Below are positions 1 to 57,911 of a stretch of 57,911 nt of DNA, one piece after another. The stretch comes from a virus (taxonomy: Duplodnaviria; Caudoviricetes), in the IMG/VR virus record IMGVR_UViG_3300027777_000041, positions 1 to 57,911 of that record; one strand, given 5' to 3'. The notes under the pieces were generated by a model. That model ran no database searches, had not been told where the DNA came from, and worked only from the letters and a program-made list of their open reading frames with translations. Every line of letters begins with the position of its first letter. Position 1 is the stretch's first letter. Made by a program: the position numbers and the translations under genes.

Positions 1-43
1 GGGGGGGGGGGGCCCGGGGGGGGGGGGGGGGGGGGGGGGGGGG
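1..43. other. Poly-G tract at contig end (probable two-colour sequencing artefact or unresolved G-rich terminus)
   Basis: Almost pure G run at the very start; the far end (57882-57911) is also G-rich. Confidence 0.6.
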
Positions 44-238
44 TATGCTTGGGTTGGTTTGTACATCCTAGGATGTATGGGTGTTTGATGTGCCGAAGGG
101 ACCCAAATGGGGGGGGGGTACTCAAGTTGGTTTGTAAATACTGGTTTGTGGGGAGGTTTGAAGAGGGGGGAAAAGGGACCCAGACCGGCCCGGCCTCTTG
201 CCCAGCTTGTGTTACTCCGGTCGTCGTCAAGGGTACCT

Positions 239-275
239 GAACAAAACAAGAACAAACTTAGAACAAAACAGGAAC
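239..275 (+). promoter_or_regulatory. Tandem alphaproteobacterial LexA (SOS) boxes, GAAC-N7 x4
   Basis: GAAC at 239, 250, 261, 272 with exact 11-bp period; matches GAAC-N7-GAAC (=GTTC-N7-GTTC). Confidence 0.8.
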
Positions 276-308
276 AAATGCGGAGCGCGTCAGCATGAGC
301 GCGGCTAT

Positions 309-324
309 TGTTTCACGTGAAACA
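309..324. promoter_or_regulatory. parS: parS site 1
   Basis: Perfect palindrome TGTTTCACGTGAAACA, the chromosomal ParB-binding consensus. Confidence 0.9.
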
Positions 325-335
325 TTCTGCGCGGT

Positions 336-361
336 GTTCTTGCTTTGTTCACGGTTTGTTC
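336..361 (+). promoter_or_regulatory. Tandem LexA boxes, GTTC-N7-GTTC-N7-GTTC
   Basis: GTTC at 336, 347, 358. Confidence 0.8.
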
Positions 362-382
362 TGGCAACATAAGCTTGGCCTA

Positions 383-398
383 TGTTTCACGTAAAACA
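383..398. promoter_or_regulatory. parS: parS site 2 (one mismatch)
   Basis: TGTTTCACGTAAAACA. Confidence 0.8.
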
Positions 399-423
399 TT
401 CTTGGTTTGTTCATGGTTTGTTC
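398..423 (+). promoter_or_regulatory. LexA boxes, ATTC-N7-GTTC-N7-GTTC
   Basis: ATTC 398, GTTC 409, GTTC 420. Confidence 0.75.
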
Positions 424-430
424 TGCCGGA

Positions 431-456
431 GAACAGACCAGTAACAGAACGGGAAC
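431..456 (+). promoter_or_regulatory. Degenerate LexA boxes, GAAC-N7-TAAC-N7-GAAC
   Basis: GAAC 431, TAAC 442, GAAC 453. Confidence 0.55.
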
Positions 457-479
457 GCCCCCAACACAAGCTTGGCCTA

Positions 480-495
480 TGTTTCACGTGAAACA
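480..495. promoter_or_regulatory. parS: parS site 3
   Basis: Perfect TGTTTCACGTGAAACA. Confidence 0.9.
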
Positions 496-553
496 TCGCG
501 TCAACATGAACGTGGCTTTATACTGGAGCGGTGGACACATGGCATTGTGTCAG

Positions 554-569
554 TGTTTCACGTGAAACA
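554..569. promoter_or_regulatory. parS: parS site 4, abutting the terS stop codon
   Basis: Perfect TGTTTCACGTGAAACA. Confidence 0.9.
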
Positions 570-1223
570 TTAGGAGTCTTCATGCTTTGCCGCCAATAGC
601 AGTTGGCGCAATGAGTCGCGCTGCTCTAGCGACAGATCACGGGCGGAAACGTTTAGCGTATTGTGGTTGACCGTCACTTGCGCTGGTTCATTGGCCAGTC
701 TTTCAGCGTAAACCTTGGGGGCAAGCTTTCCCGCCATTCTTAGTCTGGTATCCACTCTGAGCTTGTCCCTAGCAATAGCAGCGTGGTTAATCTCCCCCGC
801 CTTTGTCACGTCACGCGAGTCGTCATCTGCTATATCTAGACATTCCTGAAACAATGTATGCGCTGCATGTTCGCGGGCGCGCCCGTATTTTTCGGCGAAA
901 AGTGGCTCTAAAGCAATCCAGTCATAAACCGTCGATATATGCGGCATGTAATCCAGTGTCGCGCATATATTGTTCAGGCTCTGGCCGTTCGCCATGCGAG
1001 TCACTATCTCGTCGCCTAATGCTTCAGTGTATTTGATCCTAGGCTTTCCCTGTCTAGCTATTGCGTCCGCCTTGGCTCTAATCACTTCCCATGCTTGTGA
1101 CTCTTCTATTGCTTGGGCTTCATTACGCTCTTTACGGGCTTTGAGCTTTTCTTGCGCCTTGTCAGTGGACTCGCCAATGGGCTTGGCGGATTTATTGCGT
1201 TCCTGATTCATAGCAGACTCCAT
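570..1223 (-). CDS. terS: Terminase small subunit (Sf6-like)
   Basis: KYTEALGDEIVTRMANGQSL..IC...PHISTVYDW...F.EKY.RARE...IADD...RDKLRVDTR..MAGKLAPKVY pattern of Sf6-type TerS. Confidence 0.85.
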   Translation of the reverse strand: MESAMNQERNKSAKPIGESTDKAQEKLKARKERNEAQAIEESQAWEVIRAKADAIARQGKPRIKYTEALGDEIVTRMANGQSLNNICATLDYMPHISTVYDWIALEPLFAEKYGRAREHAAHTLFQECLDIADDDSRDVTKAGEINHAAIARDKLRVDTRLRMAGKLAPKVYAERLANEPAQVTVNHNTLNVSARDLSLEQRDSLRQLLLAAKHEDS

Positions 1224-1299: not shown

Positions 1300-1857
1300 T
1301 TACTTTGGGCGATACCCTGAGATTGCATTTCGCCCCTTGACAGTGATAGCACCCGCCTTGTTCATCAATTCCAATTTAATTAGGCGCGCTTTAATTGCTT
1401 CTAATTCACCCGCATCAATTCCCATGCGGCGCGCTTCATCAGCCCGCGCAAAGCTTTTATAAGCGCAAATGATATACAAAACCGTCTTTTCACATTCCGC
1501 AAGTTCACAATAATCATGAGGCACAAGCTTCACAATATCATCGGGGTGAACGTAAAACGTCAAGCCCATATCTTTCCCGCAGAATATCGAATGCTGGATT
1601 AGACAGAAGCCCGGCCTAATCTCCACTGTCTTTTCAGACCGGCTTGCATTCCAAGGCGCGCCATCCTGTCCCGGCAAAGTGGCGACAGAGCCGCTTGCAA
1701 GTGACACAGCACTAAACAAGTCCCGTGAACCCTCAGACCACAAGCCCGCATCAGCAGGTATTGTGAAGCTTGTGCAAGCCCGCGCTTTGAAAGCTTTACC
1801 TTCATAACCATGACGCAAGAAAGCCGGAACCTGATTCTTTTCAAGATGATGTAGCAT
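1300..1857 (-). CDS. Hypothetical protein, possible C-terminal winged helix
   Basis: 185-aa ORF, AGGTGA RBS; C-terminal ARRMGI...LIKLELMNKAGAITVKG. Confidence 0.65.
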   Translation of the reverse strand: MLHHLEKNQVPAFLRHGYEGKAFKARACTSFTIPADAGLWSEGSRDLFSAVSLASGSVATLPGQDGAPWNASRSEKTVEIRPGFCLIQHSIFCGKDMGLTFYVHPDDIVKLVPHDYCELAECEKTVLYIICAYKSFARADEARRMGIDAGELEAIKARLIKLELMNKAGAITVKGRNAISGYRPK

Positions 1858-5786: not shown

Positions 5787-6123
5787 CTTTCCCCTCCAGT
5801 GCGTTGACGCCTAATTTACGGTTACGAGCTTCCTCAAAATCCGCCTCAGTCATCAGCGCATTGTTGGCGATGATGATCCGATTTAGGAGCAGCGAGTGCA
5901 TGTCAATCGCGTCTTGGGGCGTAAAATCGGGATACCGGTAAACCCCCTCGGGGTCCGCCAACGCGATTGGCCGCCCAAGTTCCCGCAGCGCCGCCTCCAG
6001 CCTTTCGATGCGGTCGGCGGCTTCGTGTCGCTCTGACCATAGCACAGTTCGCGCTTCGCGGTGGCGCTGTCGATCTCCGGGCAGCTCATCTGCGCGCAGT
6101 CGTTTCACAAGATCATCGCTCAT
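5779..6123 (-). CDS. 'MSDDLVKRLR...LEAALR...ALEGKDD' cassette family protein
   Basis: Conserved N-terminal, middle and C-terminal blocks shared with neighbours. Confidence 0.75.
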   Translation of the reverse strand: MSDDLVKRLRADELPGDRQRHREARTVLWSERHEAADRIERLEAALRELGRPIALADPEGVYRYPDFTPQDAIDMHSLLLNRIIIANNALMTEADFEEARNRKLGVNALEGKDD

Positions 6124-7550
6124 TCTTTCCCCTCCAGTGTTTTGGCAACCTCTATGCGGGCCTTTGCAATTGCAAAGTATTCGCTGTTCATTTCAATTCC
6201 GATGAAATCAAAACCTTCTAACATCGCGGCTTTTCCAGTGCTACCACTTCCCATGAACGGGTCAAGCACTGTTCCGCCCGGCTGCGTCACAAGGCGGCAA
6301 AGATAGCGCATGAGGTCGGTGGGTTTGACCGTCGGGTGGTTGTTGGCCTCGCCACGATCTTTCTTGGCTGTCTTGGCGCAGTAGAAGAAGCGGGCGGCAG
6401 AGCCGGTGTCGCCGTAGCCTGTCTCTTGTTCGCCCGTTATATTGAGCCGCCCAGACATGGAATTTGTGTCATGCGCTTTGCGGCGGGTTCCGGGGTTCCC
6501 GCTTGTTGTCTCAGGAAACAAGTCCAACACCATCTGCGATCCGTCATGGATCAGGTTGGCGGGCCAGCGGCCAAGTGGCGATGATTTAACCGTTCCACGC
6601 GGAAGGCTTACAGTATCGCCGCTTTGCTGCTTTGATGTTGTCCATGCGCCATTTCCGCCAAGGCGAGGGTCATCTATATTTGGGTCAGTTTCAACCCTAC
6701 ACCCATCCACATTGATCGCCCCCGTCCCATGCGCCAGCACGTTCTCGGCCACCGTCCCGATCAGCGGCTTGCGGGCAACAGTGATAGGCTCCAAGGCGGG
6801 CTTGAGGGCGGTGCCCCATCCATCCCATTGCTGGGCGGCTTCGGTGGCGGGGGCTGTAAGATTTTCAACGCCATAACCAAAAATAGATTTGTTATTTTTA
6901 TTAGCGTCAGCCGCAGCCATTGTAACGCCAGATGTTTTTGCTTTTTCAACATCGCCACGAATTTTCTGCCCAATAACCTCCCGCTCCGCACCCGCCGCCT
7001 TATCAATCGCCTTACTCACATCTAGCGACTTCGGGAATCCAGACCCGTAAACCCATGCGATCATGTCGCGGATTTCAAAGCCAGCATCCTCAATTCCAGA
7101 ACACATGCGATGGTGTGTTCTCGTTCCGGCAAACGCCAGCAGATGGCCGCCCGGCTTCAAGACGCGGTAGCATTCAGAGGCCCATTCAGTCACCCACGTC
7201 TGAAAAACCCGCATCCGGTCTCCCCCACTGTGCTTTGGCTTTGGGCTGTCACATGTGCAGCGAGAGCCACCTTTACCAATCAACATTTTGCATTTTTCGC
7301 AACGATTCAAATTTGAGCCGGTGAATGACGGCCAAGATGTTTCGCGCTCACCAATTCCGGGTTCGCTGAACCCGCCACTTACCTGTTTCCAAGGCGCATC
7401 CCAATCCTTCCCCATAAACTCTAGGCCATAGGGCGGGTCGGTCACGATGGCGTCCACTGAGTTGTCAGGAAGCTCCCGCAGCCGCTCAAGGCAGTCACCC
7501 AACATCAAATTAATCTCGTTCATTTGCCGCCTCACAAGATCGTCAGTCAT
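6120..7550 (-). CDS. DNA methyltransferase, N4-C/N6-A (beta class)
   Basis: GDCLE...IVTDPPYG near N-terminus; HPTVKP...VLDPFMGSGSTG near C-terminus; start 7550 or 7523. Confidence 0.9.
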   Translation of the reverse strand: MTDDLVRRQMNEINLMLGDCLERLRELPDNSVDAIVTDPPYGLEFMGKDWDAPWKQVSGGFSEPGIGERETSWPSFTGSNLNRCEKCKMLIGKGGSRCTCDSPKPKHSGGDRMRVFQTWVTEWASECYRVLKPGGHLLAFAGTRTHHRMCSGIEDAGFEIRDMIAWVYGSGFPKSLDVSKAIDKAAGAEREVIGQKIRGDVEKAKTSGVTMAAADANKNNKSIFGYGVENLTAPATEAAQQWDGWGTALKPALEPITVARKPLIGTVAENVLAHGTGAINVDGCRVETDPNIDDPRLGGNGAWTTSKQQSGDTVSLPRGTVKSSPLGRWPANLIHDGSQMVLDLFPETTSGNPGTRRKAHDTNSMSGRLNITGEQETGYGDTGSAARFFYCAKTAKKDRGEANNHPTVKPTDLMRYLCRLVTQPGGTVLDPFMGSGSTGKAAMLEGFDFIGIEMNSEYFAIAKARIEVAKTLEGKE

Positions 7551-7740
7551 TTGTCGCCTCCAGTGCTTTGCGGGCAATGAGCTTCATGGTCTTCGACACG
7601 GCGCAGCAGTCCCAATCCGTGGACAGCTCTCGCAGCGCCGCCTCCAGCTTCTGGATACGGTCAGATTGTGACTGTAACTTGCTTGCCGCAGCATCGGATT
7701 CCCAGCTTCCGTTAGCGCGTAGCATTTCAACCAGCGTCAT
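7543..7740 (-). CDS. Cassette family protein
   Basis: MTLVEMLR...DRIQKLEAALR...ARKALEATND. Confidence 0.7.
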   Translation of the reverse strand: MTLVEMLRANGSWESDAAASKLQSQSDRIQKLEAALRELSTDWDCCAVSKTMKLIARKALEATND

Positions 7741-12027: not shown

Positions 12028-12258
12028 TCATTTATCAAGAGACTTTTGCGCCGCAATTATAATTTCCCTATTTTGTTGCACCCATTTCAGGGTCTTTAAT
12101 GCAGCTTCAACGGCGGGTAATCTTTTTTCCGTGTCATCAAGAATTTCTTTTGGACGCTCACCTTTGGCGACGTACCGGCGCACAAGATTAATGTAGCTAC
12201 GATGGTTGCGGACCACATCATCAAGGGCTGCAACTTGATCGTCTATGCCGATTTTCAT
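12028..12258 (-). CDS. Hypothetical protein
   Basis: ATGA-coupled; 76 aa. Confidence 0.7.
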   Translation of the reverse strand: MKIGIDDQVAALDDVVRNHRSYINLVRRYVAKGERPKEILDDTEKRLPAVEAALKTLKWVQQNREIIIAAQKSLDK

Positions 12259-12788
12259 GATTGGCGACCATAAAATACAGTTGATAGGCGCGGCCTTGTG
12301 TTATCAAACAGATACCAAGCGCAGTTGTCTTTGCCAACGCTAGGGCTATCTTCAATCCACTTCACGCGGCCCACAGAAACTACAGCGTGGCAATATTCCA
12401 TGTAAGCCGATGATTGACGTGTATGCGCCCAGTCAGCATCGAACAACAACCATGTTGGCTGGAGTAACGCGCAACGCTCTATGATTCGATGCAATATGGG
12501 GCGGTCCCAAGGTGGATTTGTAATGATGTAATCAGCACCCTGTAAATCGGCCAATGCAATTTGCGTGGCATCATGTTGCCAAATGTTGTCGCCCATCGGC
12601 TCTATGTCAAAAGCGGATATGCAATTAAACCCAAAAAACTTTAGCCCTCTAACTAAATCTCCTGCGCCAGCACAAGGTTCACAATACCGCGCACCGGCTG
12701 GTAAGTGACTTACCAATGGCGTGATAGCTGACAAAGGAGTCGGGTAGAAGTCCCGCTCCATGCGTTCAAAGTTCGACCTCTTGCCCAT
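12255..12788 (-). CDS. DNA adenine methyltransferase (small phage type)
   Basis: DFYPTP; EPCAGAG; IITNPPW. Confidence 0.85.
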   Translation of the reverse strand: MGKRSNFERMERDFYPTPLSAITPLVSHLPAGARYCEPCAGAGDLVRGLKFFGFNCISAFDIEPMGDNIWQHDATQIALADLQGADYIITNPPWDRPILHRIIERCALLQPTWLLFDADWAHTRQSSAYMEYCHAVVSVGRVKWIEDSPSVGKDNCAWYLFDNTRPRLSTVFYGRQS

Positions 12789-13017
12789 CGCTATCTCCCA
12801 AGACCTGTGTGGCAATTTCTAAACCCAGATGTGCGTCTGCTAAAGGCAATCTGGAAATATCTTCCAATGCCCTTTCAAGCTTCATGATGTATGTTGCGGC
12901 TTCCTGCCCAACTTGTTTGTCTTTGATCGTAACTTTTCTATTTAGATTGTGTCCTATTCGAAGAAGGCGATATGTTAGACTGAAGTAGGTGGGATAGCTT
13001 CCAAGGTTATCAAGCAT
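12766..13017 (-). CDS. Hypothetical protein (start uncertain)
   Basis: Fills the gap between rusA and the MTase; EAATYIMKLERALEDI resembles the cassette motif. Confidence 0.5.
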   Translation of the reverse strand: MLDNLGSYPTYFSLTYRLLRIGHNLNRKVTIKDKQVGQEAATYIMKLERALEDISRLPLADAHLGLEIATQVLGDSDGQEVEL

Positions 13018-17290: not shown

Positions 17291-17761
17291 ATGAAAACTG
17301 TAATAAACCCTAATACGGATGCAATCATTGATATGTGGCAGACGGGCCTATCCGGCGGACAAATTGCTTGCAGGCTTGGCATTACCCGAAATGCAGTTAT
17401 GGGCATTCTTGGGAGAAGCCGCGCTGCTGGTAAAATTGACTACCGGATAGATATGGAACGGATTAGAAATATCCGGGCTGATGTTGCTGAGATTGAACAA
17501 AAAAGGGCGTCTGTTATTGGTGAGTTTTTGCAGATAGCAATTGCCGGTGGTGATTTGCCTAGCAACAAACCAACCAGTGGCATCACGCTGATGAAACTGA
17601 AACCAAGTTCTTGCCGATATATTATCGGAAGAAATGTGGATGATGAATTTTTGTTCTGTGGAGAACAACGCGGAGCATCATCATACTGTAAAACCCACCA
17701 CAAACTTTGCTATACACCCTTGTCAAAGCTGAAGGAGAAAAACTATGTTGTTACAGCTTAA
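17291..17761 (+). CDS. gcrA: GcrA cell-cycle regulator homologue
   Basis: N-terminal W..GLSGGQIA.RLGITRNAVMG..R; C-terminal TLMKL....CRYIIG...FCG......YC..H...Y. Confidence 0.88.
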   Translation: MKTVINPNTDAIIDMWQTGLSGGQIACRLGITRNAVMGILGRSRAAGKIDYRIDMERIRNIRADVAEIEQKRASVIGEFLQIAIAGGDLPSNKPTSGITLMKLKPSSCRYIIGRNVDDEFLFCGEQRGASSYCKTHHKLCYTPLSKLKEKNYVVTA

Positions 17762-43919: not shown

Positions 43920-44804
43920 CTACTGGCGGGCTTCGCCTTTTACCTTGTTGCGGTAGTACTCTTGGGGAGTAATGCCACTGATTTTGGCAGCTTCTACTTC
44001 CGCAGCGGTAAGGGTAACAACGCCAGACCGATTAGTGCTGGTCCCAGAACGCGACACCGGAGCCGAAGGAGGCGACGAACGCTTCTGGGTAGGCTTGGCA
44101 GAGTATTCCATCGCATCATCCAAACCGGGGATGGCGCGCTTAGACTCACCAATGCCAAGACGGTTTTCGACAAACTTAAAATACGCATCTGATTCGGGGA
44201 TGATCCCATAATCAACGGCATCTTCATGAGCGCGGGCCATCACGCGGATTGAGCGCGAATCAGGCAAATGTTCACGGTTTGTTCGCAACCACTCAGCAGA
44301 ACGTGGAGTTACCTGATTAATCAGGGAATCAACATTCATTTCACGCGGCTGGGGGGCTACAGGCTGACGCGGAGTATTCCGCATTTCCTCATAACCGCTT
44401 TCCAGCTGGCTCAACTTGTTGAAATTGACCTGCATTGCTGACTGAATATCAGTAGCCTTGTCAAAATCACCGATTGCCATCGAATCACGCAAATGAGCCT
44501 TCAGGATTTCCTGATCCCGCTTTACGCTATCAATTGCGCTGGCAACAAGATGCATATTGGTGTCAGACACCTCACCATATGCCGCCTGCGCCTTTTGGTC
44601 AGACACGCGGGCGCGCTCTTCAGCTTGCTCACGGGCTAGACGCTCTTGCTCAAGACGCGCATTAAGCTCCTTAAGAGCCGAATCAACGTCTTTCCCCTTT
44701 TTAGGGGCTTCAACTACTTCAATTTCCTGTTCTTCAGCTTTCTTAGTGTCAACCTTTGGGGCGTCATCCAAGATAACTTCAACAGTTTCTTCCATATCAG
44801 ACAT
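43920..44804 (-). CDS. Capsid scaffolding protein
   Basis: Acidic N-terminus, coiled coil, C-terminal APVSRS...VTLT..E...AK..GIT..EY. Confidence 0.75.
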   Translation of the reverse strand: MSDMEETVEVILDDAPKVDTKKAEEQEIEVVEAPKKGKDVDSALKELNARLEQERLAREQAEERARVSDQKAQAAYGEVSDTNMHLVASAIDSVKRDQEILKAHLRDSMAIGDFDKATDIQSAMQVNFNKLSQLESGYEEMRNTPRQPVAPQPREMNVDSLINQVTPRSAEWLRTNREHLPDSRSIRVMARAHEDAVDYGIIPESDAYFKFVENRLGIGESKRAIPGLDDAMEYSAKPTQKRSSPPSAPVSRSGTSTNRSGVVTLTAAEVEAAKISGITPQEYYRNKVKGEARQ

Positions 44805-53291: not shown

Positions 53292-55013
53292 TTAAATTGG
53301 GTATAGCGGTTCGTAAGTATTATTGCCCTTGAACGTAAACCGGCTTTCGTTGTCCGCTTCCCATTCTTCGCCACGCATAATCGCGCCAGTATCGCGCAAA
53401 TGGCGCATTGCCATGCTTACGGTGTCTACAAGGTCGTCATGTTTTGCTTTTGGAAACTGGCCTACTTGGGTAATTACCATGTCAGCCCATTGTTTGTTGG
53501 GGGCATATACCAGTCCTTCGGCAAACAAATGCTGGACGGAGTACAGTCTGGCCAATTTATCTTGGCTTTTTGGGTCAAACATGTGAACCCCAAATCGCTC
53601 ATGCCCGTACATGCGCCGGATTTCCTGCGCTACGGAGAACCCAGCGGCTTTGTTTTCGATCAAAAGCACGTCTACTTTTAACTTTCGGCAAGTTTCTGAC
53701 ACTTTTTGAACTAGATCGTGCAACTCATGCCGCCCCTGCCATGCATACATAAGCATAACTTTAGGCGATACTTCAGTATAATTTCTTGCTGCATCCACTA
53801 ACCCACCATGTCGGCCACCGGCATGGGTGGACGCTTGCACGGAAATGGCACTAGAAAACACCCCCCACACCGTCATGGCGGATGGGTCGTTTTCTGTTTT
53901 GGTGGTATATGCGGTATCTAATGTAGCAATTACTAGGTCCATGTTTGGGTAGTTGGGAGAATCCCAAGGTTGCCACCAGTCACGTTTAATAATACCGCCG
54001 CCTTTGGGTTCTGGTCTTTGCTGGAGCTGCCCCGCCGCGGCCCAAGGACCTAACTGCTTTTCAAGGATAGCAACTTCGGTTTCACCAAACCGCTCAGGCC
54101 ATAAAAGCAAACCTTCGCGCTTTTCCAATTCAACTTCGGCTTCAAACGACACAGGGATACGGTCGCCATTTTTGGCAACACTAACCAGTGCTTCACCTTC
54201 ATCATTTGTGCCACGCGGGTCATTCCAACCAATTGATGTTGCGGAGTGCCTGTTCCATTCGTATCGCATGGGCAAACACAAGTGTGTCCACTCACCCATG
54301 TTCTTTGACATGATATGTCCGGTTAGGTCTTCTTCTGAAAGCCTCTGCTGGATGACAACAAAGGCACCCGTTTTGGGGTCATTGAGGCGCGTGGACAGGG
54401 CAGAGTCCCACCAGTCAATTGTTGATGCGATGGTAGCTTCTGAGTGGGCTTCTTGCGCTGCATTGGGATCATCGACAACAATAATAGAGCCGCCTTCGCC
54501 AGTAAGTGCGGAGCCCACCGATGTGGAAAGACGCGAACCATTTTTGTCATTATCAAACCTTGTCTTGGTGTTTTGGTCACTGGTTAGTTTGAACCTATCA
54601 CCCCACAAAGATTGATACCACGGGCTTTCAATCAAGCGCCTGCACTTAACCGAATCGCGCAACGCAAGCTGCTGGGCATAGGATGAGTGCAATAGTTGCA
54701 CTCCCGGCCCAGAGGTAGGAGAGATCCACGGTTGTGCCCAGATCCATGCAGGAAAGGCGCAAGATGTAATAGATGATTTACCCATGCGGGGCGGAATATT
54801 GATGATTAGCCGCCTAATGTCACCATCAACAACGGCTTGCAAATGTTCCGCAATAGCTTCGATGGGCCACCCCTCTGTAAAAGGAGAGGCATCAATGTAC
54901 CGCCAAGCATGTTTTAGGAACGTGTACAGGCTGTCTTCACAGTCTGCGCGGTCTAGTTCCTGCAACTGCCTTTCAATGTCGATATGCTTGCCGTCAAGGT
55001 CAAGCGTCGTCAA
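53292..55013 (-). CDS. terL: Terminase large subunit
   Basis: INIPPRMGKS (Walker A); IVVDDP; QQRP; LDTA; IENKAAG; HDDLVD; TTG start at 55013 with GGAG RBS. Confidence 0.93.
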   Translation of the reverse strand: MTTLDLDGKHIDIERQLQELDRADCEDSLYTFLKHAWRYIDASPFTEGWPIEAIAEHLQAVVDGDIRRLIINIPPRMGKSSITSCAFPAWIWAQPWISPTSGPGVQLLHSSYAQQLALRDSVKCRRLIESPWYQSLWGDRFKLTSDQNTKTRFDNDKNGSRLSTSVGSALTGEGGSIIVVDDPNAAQEAHSEATIASTIDWWDSALSTRLNDPKTGAFVVIQQRLSEEDLTGHIMSKNMGEWTHLCLPMRYEWNRHSATSIGWNDPRGTNDEGEALVSVAKNGDRIPVSFEAEVELEKREGLLLWPERFGETEVAILEKQLGPWAAAGQLQQRPEPKGGGIIKRDWWQPWDSPNYPNMDLVIATLDTAYTTKTENDPSAMTVWGVFSSAISVQASTHAGGRHGGLVDAARNYTEVSPKVMLMYAWQGRHELHDLVQKVSETCRKLKVDVLLIENKAAGFSVAQEIRRMYGHERFGVHMFDPKSQDKLARLYSVQHLFAEGLVYAPNKQWADMVITQVGQFPKAKHDDLVDTVSMAMRHLRDTGAIMRGEEWEADNESRFTFKGNNTYEPLYPI

Positions 55014-55188
55014 GCGGCGGCTCCGGCAAATCAATCCAATGGCTGAAGGGGTTTGCAGGATCAAGACCACCTTCGGAGGTCCACTGGTCTTCCCAGTCGT
55101 CCCACCAAGCAATTTCAATCATGTATCCATTCCATGCCAGAAAATCCCGGTCTTTGGGGGCAGTGTCAACAGTTTGCCAATCCATCAC
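55000..55188 (-). CDS. DUF551-like protein
   Basis: WQTVDTAPKD...SHWIDLPEPP. Confidence 0.75.
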   Translation of the reverse strand: MMDWQTVDTAPKDRDFLAWNGYMIEIAWWDDWEDQWTSEGGLDPANPFSHWIDLPEPPLDDA

Positions 55189-57133: not shown

Positions 57134-57207
57134 TCCCGCGTCGTCCAAAGGTAGGACATCTGACTTTGACTCAGGCAATCGTGGTTCGAATCCATGCGCG
57201 GGAACCA
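57134..57207 (+). tRNA. trnQ: tRNA-Gln (anticodon TTG)
   Basis: Acceptor TCCCGCG/CGCGGGA; D arm GTC..GAC; anticodon loop CTTTGAC; GGTTCGAATCC T arm; encoded CCA. Confidence 0.93.
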
Positions 57208-57842: not shown

Positions 57843-57871
57843 CAGGGGACCCACAAGTCCCCTGTTTTTTT
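57843..57871 (+). terminator. Rho-independent terminator
   Basis: CAGGGGAC-ccacaa-GTCCCCTG-TTTTTTT. Confidence 0.8.
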
Positions 57872-57911
57872 GTGCCTATATGGGGCAGGGGGACCCGGAG
57901 GGGTGGGGGTA

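Follow-up and report, generated by a model that had tools for sequence, protein, structure and literature searches.

Between the small and large terminase genes (terS and terL) of an uncultured freshwater phage lies a composite module, in which four phased arrays of GAAC half-sites are interleaved with four 16-bp palindromes of the canonical chromosomal parS type (TGTTTCACGTGAAACA). An earlier description of this DNA, made from its letters alone (the 'sequence-only reading'), had presented the arrays as chained LexA boxes and had left the parS sites unreported. The module occupies approximately 330 bp immediately 3' of terS, on the side that faces terL, and its best explanation, put forward at somewhat less than even confidence, is that it may act as a conserved, promoter-less 'protein-loading platform' in which the GAAC pairs would serve as phased half-sites. 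The repeats have the look of a docking site for proteins of the host, not of a switch that controls a gene, and a platform for host proteins is supported because parS sites target a host protein and the phage itself has no ParB.

The DNA studied here (the 'window') is an IMG/VR virus record of 57,911 bp, rated complete, with a GC content of 0.507. In addition to the genes collected in Table 1 it encodes portal, capsid, tail and lysis functions, a primase, a helicase, RusA and SSB; no integrase, repressor, ParA, ParB, ParM, ParR or Rep was found among 84 ORFs (PHROGs) or 51 ORFs (Pfam), and a six-frame search of the phage genome for ParB_N and HTH_ParB returned zero matches at E values up to 1. 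The closest match to its TerL comes from an uncultured phage (46% identity), and the closest from phages with a named host are those of the Roseobacter phages CRP-901 and CRP-902 and of a Paracoccus phage (36-40% identity). GcrA is a regulator of Alphaproteobacteria; because the phage carries a GcrA homologue, and in keeping with the relatives of its TerL, the host is probably alphaproteobacterial. The same homologue, taken together with two DNA methyltransferases, suggests possible interference with the host cell cycle.

Near-identical DNA is present in contigs of 14 freshwater metagenome runs, and the contigs of four of these runs revealed no DNA ends, no array variants and no contig joining the two window ends. 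No near-identical DNA was found among GenBank phages, a BLAST comparison of the array-plus-parS stretch with phages gave zero matches, and the genome collection yielded no close prophage or plasmid relative, a TerS scan of its bacterial genomes producing distant matches (at most 41%) in Devosia, a Salinarimonadaceae MAG and others. Other contigs from the same freshwater samples (X1-X4) match window positions 303-571 only over parS stretches of approximately 20 bases, and some of them have two sites separated by 16 bases; they probably come from host chromosomes or from other phages.

Table 1. Coordinates of the composite module, its flanks and the genes mentioned in the text (positions in the window).
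Feature	Position	Strand	Details
G-run region	36-182		Distal module flank; two copies of a 53-nt repeat; AAGGGACCCA at 96 and 173
Array A1	239-282	+	Four GAACAAA units, 11-bp period; GAAC at 239, 250, 261, 272
Array A2	334-361	-	Three GTTC half-sites (336, 347, 358), two being full TTTGTTC units
Array A3	398-424	-	ATTC at 398, GTTC at 409 and 420
Array A4	431-456	+	Degenerate: GAACAGA, TAACAGA, GAACG, starting at 431, 442, 453
Perfect pairs	239-253, 250-264, 261-275	+	GAAC-N7-GAAC
Perfect pairs	336-350, 347-361, 409-423	-	
One-mismatch pairs	272-286, 398-412, 431-445, 436-450, 442-456		
Seventh perfect pair	44270-44284	-	Lone; inside a structural-region gene
parS-1	309-324	palindrome	Perfect, TGTTTCACGTGAAACA
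parS-2	383-398	palindrome	One mismatch, TGTTTCACGTAAAACA
parS-3	480-495	palindrome	Perfect
parS-4	554-569	palindrome	Perfect; abuts the terS stop codon
terS	570-1223	-	Sf6-type small terminase; Pfam Sf6_terminase, E 1e-31; phrog_1482
wHTH ORF	1300-1857		Upstream of terS
DNA methyltransferases (two)	6120-7577 and 12255-12815		
GcrA homologue	17291-17761		Cell-cycle regulator; Pfam, E 3e-18
terL	53292-55118	-	Large terminase (PHROGs)
tRNA-Gln	57134-57207		Anticodon TTG; between module and terL

The sequence-only reading had counted six perfect GAAC-N7-GAAC pairs between positions 239 and 456, and a recount gives the same number, all six being held within 185 bp. The entire genome contains seven such pairs; 100 shuffled versions contained 1.36 on average and five at most, with none reaching seven. 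The three one-mismatch pairs that had also been described are those in register with the arrays (starting at 398, 431 and 442), and the full count is five. At up to one mismatch, 11 sites fall within positions 200-620 and 48 on both strands of the whole window. Half-sites are indeed shared between successive pairs, in both orientations and with an 11-bp period, and the repeat unit consists of GAACAAA followed by four bases that vary from unit to unit. Array A3 repeats A2 with 93% identity at a distance of 62 nt, and A3 and A4 together form an inverted array pair, in the same back-to-back layout that is found in the viral contigs L200, L209 and L235. The 15-mer of the lone seventh pair is identical to that at 347-361, and the pair is missing at the homologous place in both of the clade-2 relatives (described below) that have the gene in which it lies.

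The four parS sites are the only matches to the palindrome at up to two mismatches, against 0.04 expected, and a 35-nt repeat around parS-2 is common to parS-1, parS-3 and parS-4. The same 16-mer served as the parS DNA for Caulobacter ParB in PMC7053999, and elsewhere in the literature, among the matches listed, it occurs mostly in work on ParB/parS and chromosome segregation. When compared with the chromosomal parS cluster and its ParB (PMC7053999), the phage cluster is similar in presenting four 16-bp palindromes, with a single mismatch in parS-2, within 260 bp; it is different in being accompanied by neither parA nor parB (so that a cognate ParB is missing from the same replicon), in being located between packaging genes and in being combined with GAAC arrays. 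As a separate observation, one unit plus its spacer (TTGTTCACG) and a parS half plus centre (TGTTTCACG) differ only by a swapped G and T, and in the relative L438 a parS-like site is embedded in an array (region 1912-1960).

Among the relatives of the phage, parS was found in all 11 of the examined contigs of the group (one to five copies each) and GAAC arrays in seven of the 11, and the module adjoins terS in 10 relative contigs, the exception being L439, which is without an identified terS. Clade 1 (L005, L006, L007, L172 and the 538-nt fragment L276; TerS 69-80%) possesses three to five parS sites together with arrays. Its parS often takes the variant form TGTTTCACGGGAAACA, which is asymmetric and accounts for all or most sites in some of L005, L006, L007 and L276; the base changed is among the positions that distinguish parS from the Noc-binding NBS site given in PMC7053999. 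Clade 2 (L174, L175, L056 and L096; TerS 29-56%, TerL 81-88%) carries three to five perfect parS sites between terS and terL and zero GAAC-N7-GAAC pairs. Right after its terS stop codon, arrays of an AACTA pentamer (L175, 3095-3160; L056, 2212-2300; L096, 2327-2430) stand in the place taken in clade 1 by parS and the GAAC arrays, and L174 contains no AACTA array either. Clade 3 (L438; TerS 40%, TerL 72%) has one parS-like site and ten GAACAAA units directly after terS, and clade 4 (L439; TerL 61%) has one perfect parS and short arrays approximately 4 kb upstream of terL.

Further afield, 25 remoter TerS loci (at most 52% over the best segment) display neither parS nor arrays within approximately 3 kb, the cultured phages CRP-902 and MW202675 have no arrays near their terminase genes, and the cultured VpJYP1, EXVC032P and Vibrio phage 1.262.O have no arrays, the whole records of these five phages giving two chance-like one-mismatch matches, both in the AT-rich EXVC032P. 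Of five cultured phages of Alphaproteobacteria, not one has three phased GAAC half-sites. Residues 1-64 of the window's TerS form an N-terminal extension, rich in Lys and Glu, that precedes the Sf6_terminase match; parS-bearing relatives align with this extension, and the 25 distant TerS proteins from parS-less loci match only from approximately residue 54 onward.

Constraint on the module was compared over five clade-1 relatives, using classes of positions set on the window sequence, and defining the classes in that manner cannot alone create conservation in the relatives. The GAAC tetramers are identical at 245 of 252 aligned positions (97.2%) and parS at 226 of 240 (94.2%), as against 155 of 180 for unit positions 5-7 (86.1%), 188 of 237 for spacer positions 8-11 (79.3%) and 367 of 433 for the remaining positions (84.8%). 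Because the tetramers and parS exceed the spacers and flanks in identity, the alignments indicate that the GAAC tetramers, at their 11-bp spacing, and parS are under selection and that the spacers are not. At the DNA level, four relatives match the module at 85-91% identity and terS at 76-83%. These values bear upon the notion that the module is structural DNA only, in which phased A-tracts generate curvature or a tandem duplication is decaying with no specific binder. Each unit does contain an A3-4 tract at an 11-bp period, and viral contigs often contain 11-bp tandem repeats; however, GAAC is conserved above the A-tract (97% versus 86%), the spacers differ between units (and so do not represent a recent duplication) and the module is better conserved than the neighbouring terS. 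A purely structural role is considered barely probable.

The placement of the arrays downstream of terS agrees with the original description, as does the lack of a credible gene start nearby: a consensus scan identified zero sigma-70-like sites in positions 1-1400, and this absence of a promoter upholds the view that the element is unlike an ordinary operator. No Rfam family was found in positions 1-1300. The module is flanked by the 3' end of terS and by + strand ORFs, at the far window end, that run toward it. The contiguity of terS, module and terL across the window ends, upon which a proposal of gated read-through from terS to terL had depended, is borne out by the relative L006, which runs through the junction. 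The read-through itself fits relatives of the L174 type, in which terS, module and terL are co-directional, but fits the window less well, where + strand ORFs and a hairpin-plus-T-run (approximately 57843-57871, as read from the sequence) intervene between module and terL.

Within the G-run region that forms the distal flank, the two 53-nt repeats (36-88 and 109-161) are 72% alike and start 73 nt apart, and each opens with 8-10 consecutive G and then TA; C/G-run flanks homologous to this region are also found in relatives. In the first 43 bases of the window a single CCC interrupts an otherwise unbroken stretch of G, G-runs occur again at its far end (57886-57911), and the assemblies of the phage and its relatives tend to break in such runs. 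The breaks may reflect an artefact of homopolymers or, alternatively, the proximity of true DNA ends. Motifs consisting of a G-run plus TA also flank the arrays of an unrelated lineage (L200/L235).

Phased direct and inverted short repeats that adjoin centromere sites could also be read as a replication origin or a plasmid-type centromere, in which the repeats would represent iterons or the sites of an RHH protein and, in combination with parS, would provide for episomal maintenance. Sites of the parS type are usually located near origins, and a primase-helicase gene directly adjoins the arrays of lineage L187. Nevertheless, positions 1-700 of the window contain no DnaA box, CtrA box, IHF core or AT-rich stretch (the lowest GC content of any 50 bp being 0.40), no initiator gene is adjacent (the primase gene being 4 kb off), the scanned ORFs include none of the integrase, repressor, ParA, ParM, ParR and Rep genes that were sought, and the genome collection offers no close prophage or plasmid relative; such an origin or centromere is regarded as very improbable. 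The centromeres of plasmid R1 (parC) and its kin are repeat arrays bound by RHH proteins, and the R1 repeats flank a promoter. The likeness to parC resides in the blocks of 11-bp phased direct repeats of a high-avidity partition complex, whereas no ParR/ParM or ParG-type gene was found in the phage and the repeats of its module flank no promoter.

The LexA protein of an alphaproteobacterial host is the best single candidate for a binder of the arrays, an assignment that the motif and the likely host class suggest and that is made tentatively, at a confidence that does not reach even. To our knowledge, alphaproteobacterial LexA is the only protein in the likely host class with a specificity for GAAC repeated one turn apart, and we know of no established role for LexA other than at operators. 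The consensus of the alphaproteobacterial LexA box is GTTC-N7-GTTC in Caulobacter (PMC12700426). The module contains this direct repeat in its six perfect and five one-mismatch sites and combines conserved tetramers with free spacers (97.2% versus 79.3% in the five relatives); a regulated promoter is what it lacks, with 0 promoter-like sites in positions 1-1400. Judged by eye, the window sites are similar to the 32 boxes that supplementary file 3 of PMC12700426 gives for Caulobacter; those boxes mostly have T, T/A and T before the second GTTC, and TTT stands before the second GTTC in all six perfect window sites. The similarity to the operator described in PMC12700426 covers the tetramers, their spacing, the T-rich 3' part of the spacer and the probable host class. 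The differences are that the module chains up to four half-sites, in four arrays and on both strands, that it comes with neither promoter nor regulated gene, and that it is interleaved with parS.

A three-unit array occurs in only one of 401 sampled alphaproteobacterial genomes, and cellular LexA regulons therefore do not use such a layout. The LexA-box reading stands only in part: the GTTC-N7-GTTC motif, the restriction of constraint to the tetramers and the likely host class agree with it, but it ignored the four interleaved parS sites, and sister phages whose TerL is 81-88% identical keep parS without GAAC pairs. Counting against LexA are the absence of a promoter, the lack of arrays in clade 2, the commonness of 11-bp arrays and the occurrence of GAACAAA beside unrelated terminases. 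Because viral contigs commonly carry 11-bp arrays built from many other units, it is estimated that a GAAC-bearing unit would mimic chained LexA boxes by chance in roughly 1 array family in 12.

Arrays of GAACAAA-N4 are found in at least 123 other viral loci, at a local GC content of 0.24-0.60, often as back-to-back inverted array pairs near contig ends and terminase genes. Of the 80 loci examined with their flanks, 25 have a terminase gene no more than 1.5 kb from the array; these form four groups of related contigs, and the terminases in question belong to three TerS and two TerL PHROG families. Terminases aside, the window proteins that recur at the 80 flanked loci amount to four short matches to small ORFs, three of them in L227, itself a relative of the phage group. 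When the tetramers alone were scanned, 109 of the 120 loci among the matches listed were without a GAACAAA unit, and tandem or phased 11-bp arrays with many different units proved common in viral contigs (L182-L304, L441-L560). The viral match count was rejected as a measure of enrichment, a composition-matched control pattern likewise giving only a lower bound ('at least'). GcrA, used as a host marker on five long array-bearing viral records, gave one weak match, below the cut-off, and the unit sequence was encountered in the literature only in unrelated papers. Since the same unit stands beside unrelated terminases and almost no other window protein recurs at those loci, a shared host factor would be favoured, and since LexA is the sole known reader of the motif, LexA would in turn be favoured as that factor.

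The same association with terminase genes also lends itself to the main rival account, possible though on balance unlikely, in which the module is a terminase recognition site resembling pac or cosB. An oligomerising phage protein (TerS, or a small HTH or RHH protein) would bind the units and wrap or bend the DNA, the match to LexA boxes would be coincidental, and parS would be a host accessory-factor site or would have a separate role. In phage lambda, cosB consists of gpNu1 R-sites interleaved with the IHF site I1 and is located beside the small-terminase gene. The phage module shares with it the mixing of repeated protein-binding elements with host-factor sites, in non-coding DNA beside terS; it differs in lying downstream rather than upstream of terS, in having parS in place of an IHF site, in units that do not co-vary with TerS, and in being known here from sequence alone. 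Two reviews (PMC9611059, PMC4669245) give general support for the lambda comparison.

Several further points agree with a terminase recognition site. The module lies in the terS-terL stretch across the phage group (in L439, approximately 4 kb upstream of terL), 25 of 80 GAACAAA loci are, as noted above, at most 1.5 kb away from a terminase gene, G-run motifs are found beside the arrays both here and in L200/L235, and the commonness of 11-bp arrays with lineage-specific units fits phage-specific binders. A repeat-filled terS-terL spacer of 0.5-1.6 kb also suggests a cis site, because in phages terS and terL generally stand side by side (PMC9611059). Opposed to these are the observations that the TerS families beside the same GAACAAA unit differ; that the TerS recognition helix is nearly that of the window in the array-less L174 and L175 and is divergent in the array-bearing L006, L172 and L007, so that the unit and the DNA-binding domain of TerS fail to co-vary; that no conserved candidate binder is encoded nearby; and that TerS of pac phages binds DNA weakly and without sequence specificity in vitro (PMC9611059). 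The wHTH ORF upstream of terS was considered as a binder of the arrays and rejected, being without a homologue at L173 (which has arrays) or L175 and present in the array-less L174; it provided only weak wHTH leads and does not resemble the GP88-family neighbour that other arrays have.

A host factor other than LexA would likewise account for the same unit standing beside unrelated terminases. Regulators of the OmpR/PhoB type bind direct repeats of 7+4 bp spaced one turn apart, and the units are laid out as 7 bp plus a 4-bp spacer; alternatively, ParB itself might use the units as weak, half-site-like pads, in view of the resemblance of TTGTTCACG to a parS half plus centre and of the parS-like site within an array of L438. 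Yet no known regulator with the unit motif was identified, the likeness to a parS half is seen in only some window units, and the constraint across genomes falls on GAAC and not on the wider unit, so a binder of either kind is judged improbable. A predicted complex of TerS with Caulobacter ParB scored 0.25, with the mark at 0.32.

Under the preferred explanation, that of a platform for host proteins, host ParB would nucleate on the phage parS sites, and a second protein that reads GAAC one helical turn apart would coat one face of the DNA beside it; this second protein would most likely be host LexA. The arrays would then act by avidity and not as an operator, through 13 half-sites common to overlapping boxes. 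If LexA does bind, the module may quite possibly, with a likelihood a little under even, be a host-factor scaffold for the initiation of packaging, with LexA and ParB taking the role that IHF has at lambda cosB. Again given LexA binding, a copy-number-dependent titration of LexA and ParB by replicating phage DNA can be entertained at a similarly tentative level, and would be expected to derepress SOS genes and to disturb ParB-dependent segregation and division. A roadblock that tunes transcription from terS to terL is, on the same premise, unlikely. The location of the module between terS and terL and the link between arrays and terminases favour a packaging role; the titration of regulators is favoured by the exact parS sites in a phage without ParB, by a genome present in many copies and by the GcrA- and CcrM-like genes that the phage itself carries. 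That a virulent-looking phage carries a dual LexA/ParB pad, either to soak up both proteins or to employ them as co-factors of packaging initiation, is a proposal given only a small chance; together with the GcrA- and CcrM-like genes, such a pad would rewire the SOS response and the cell cycle through DNA sites, with no protein effector. The literature searched, mostly open-access, contained no report of a parS cluster beside phage terminase genes or of chained LexA boxes in a phage.

If LexA and ParB do load upon the module, it would be a case of a phage acting on host regulators by means of binding-site arrays alone, and would offer a handle on the ways in which alphaproteobacterial phages disturb the control of division by ParB/MipZ and SOS. 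Should the binder prove to be a phage protein, the module would be a conserved and well-defined candidate pac region for an uncultured group of freshwater phages, and the recurrence of GAACAAA arrays beside unrelated terminase genes would still call for an explanation.
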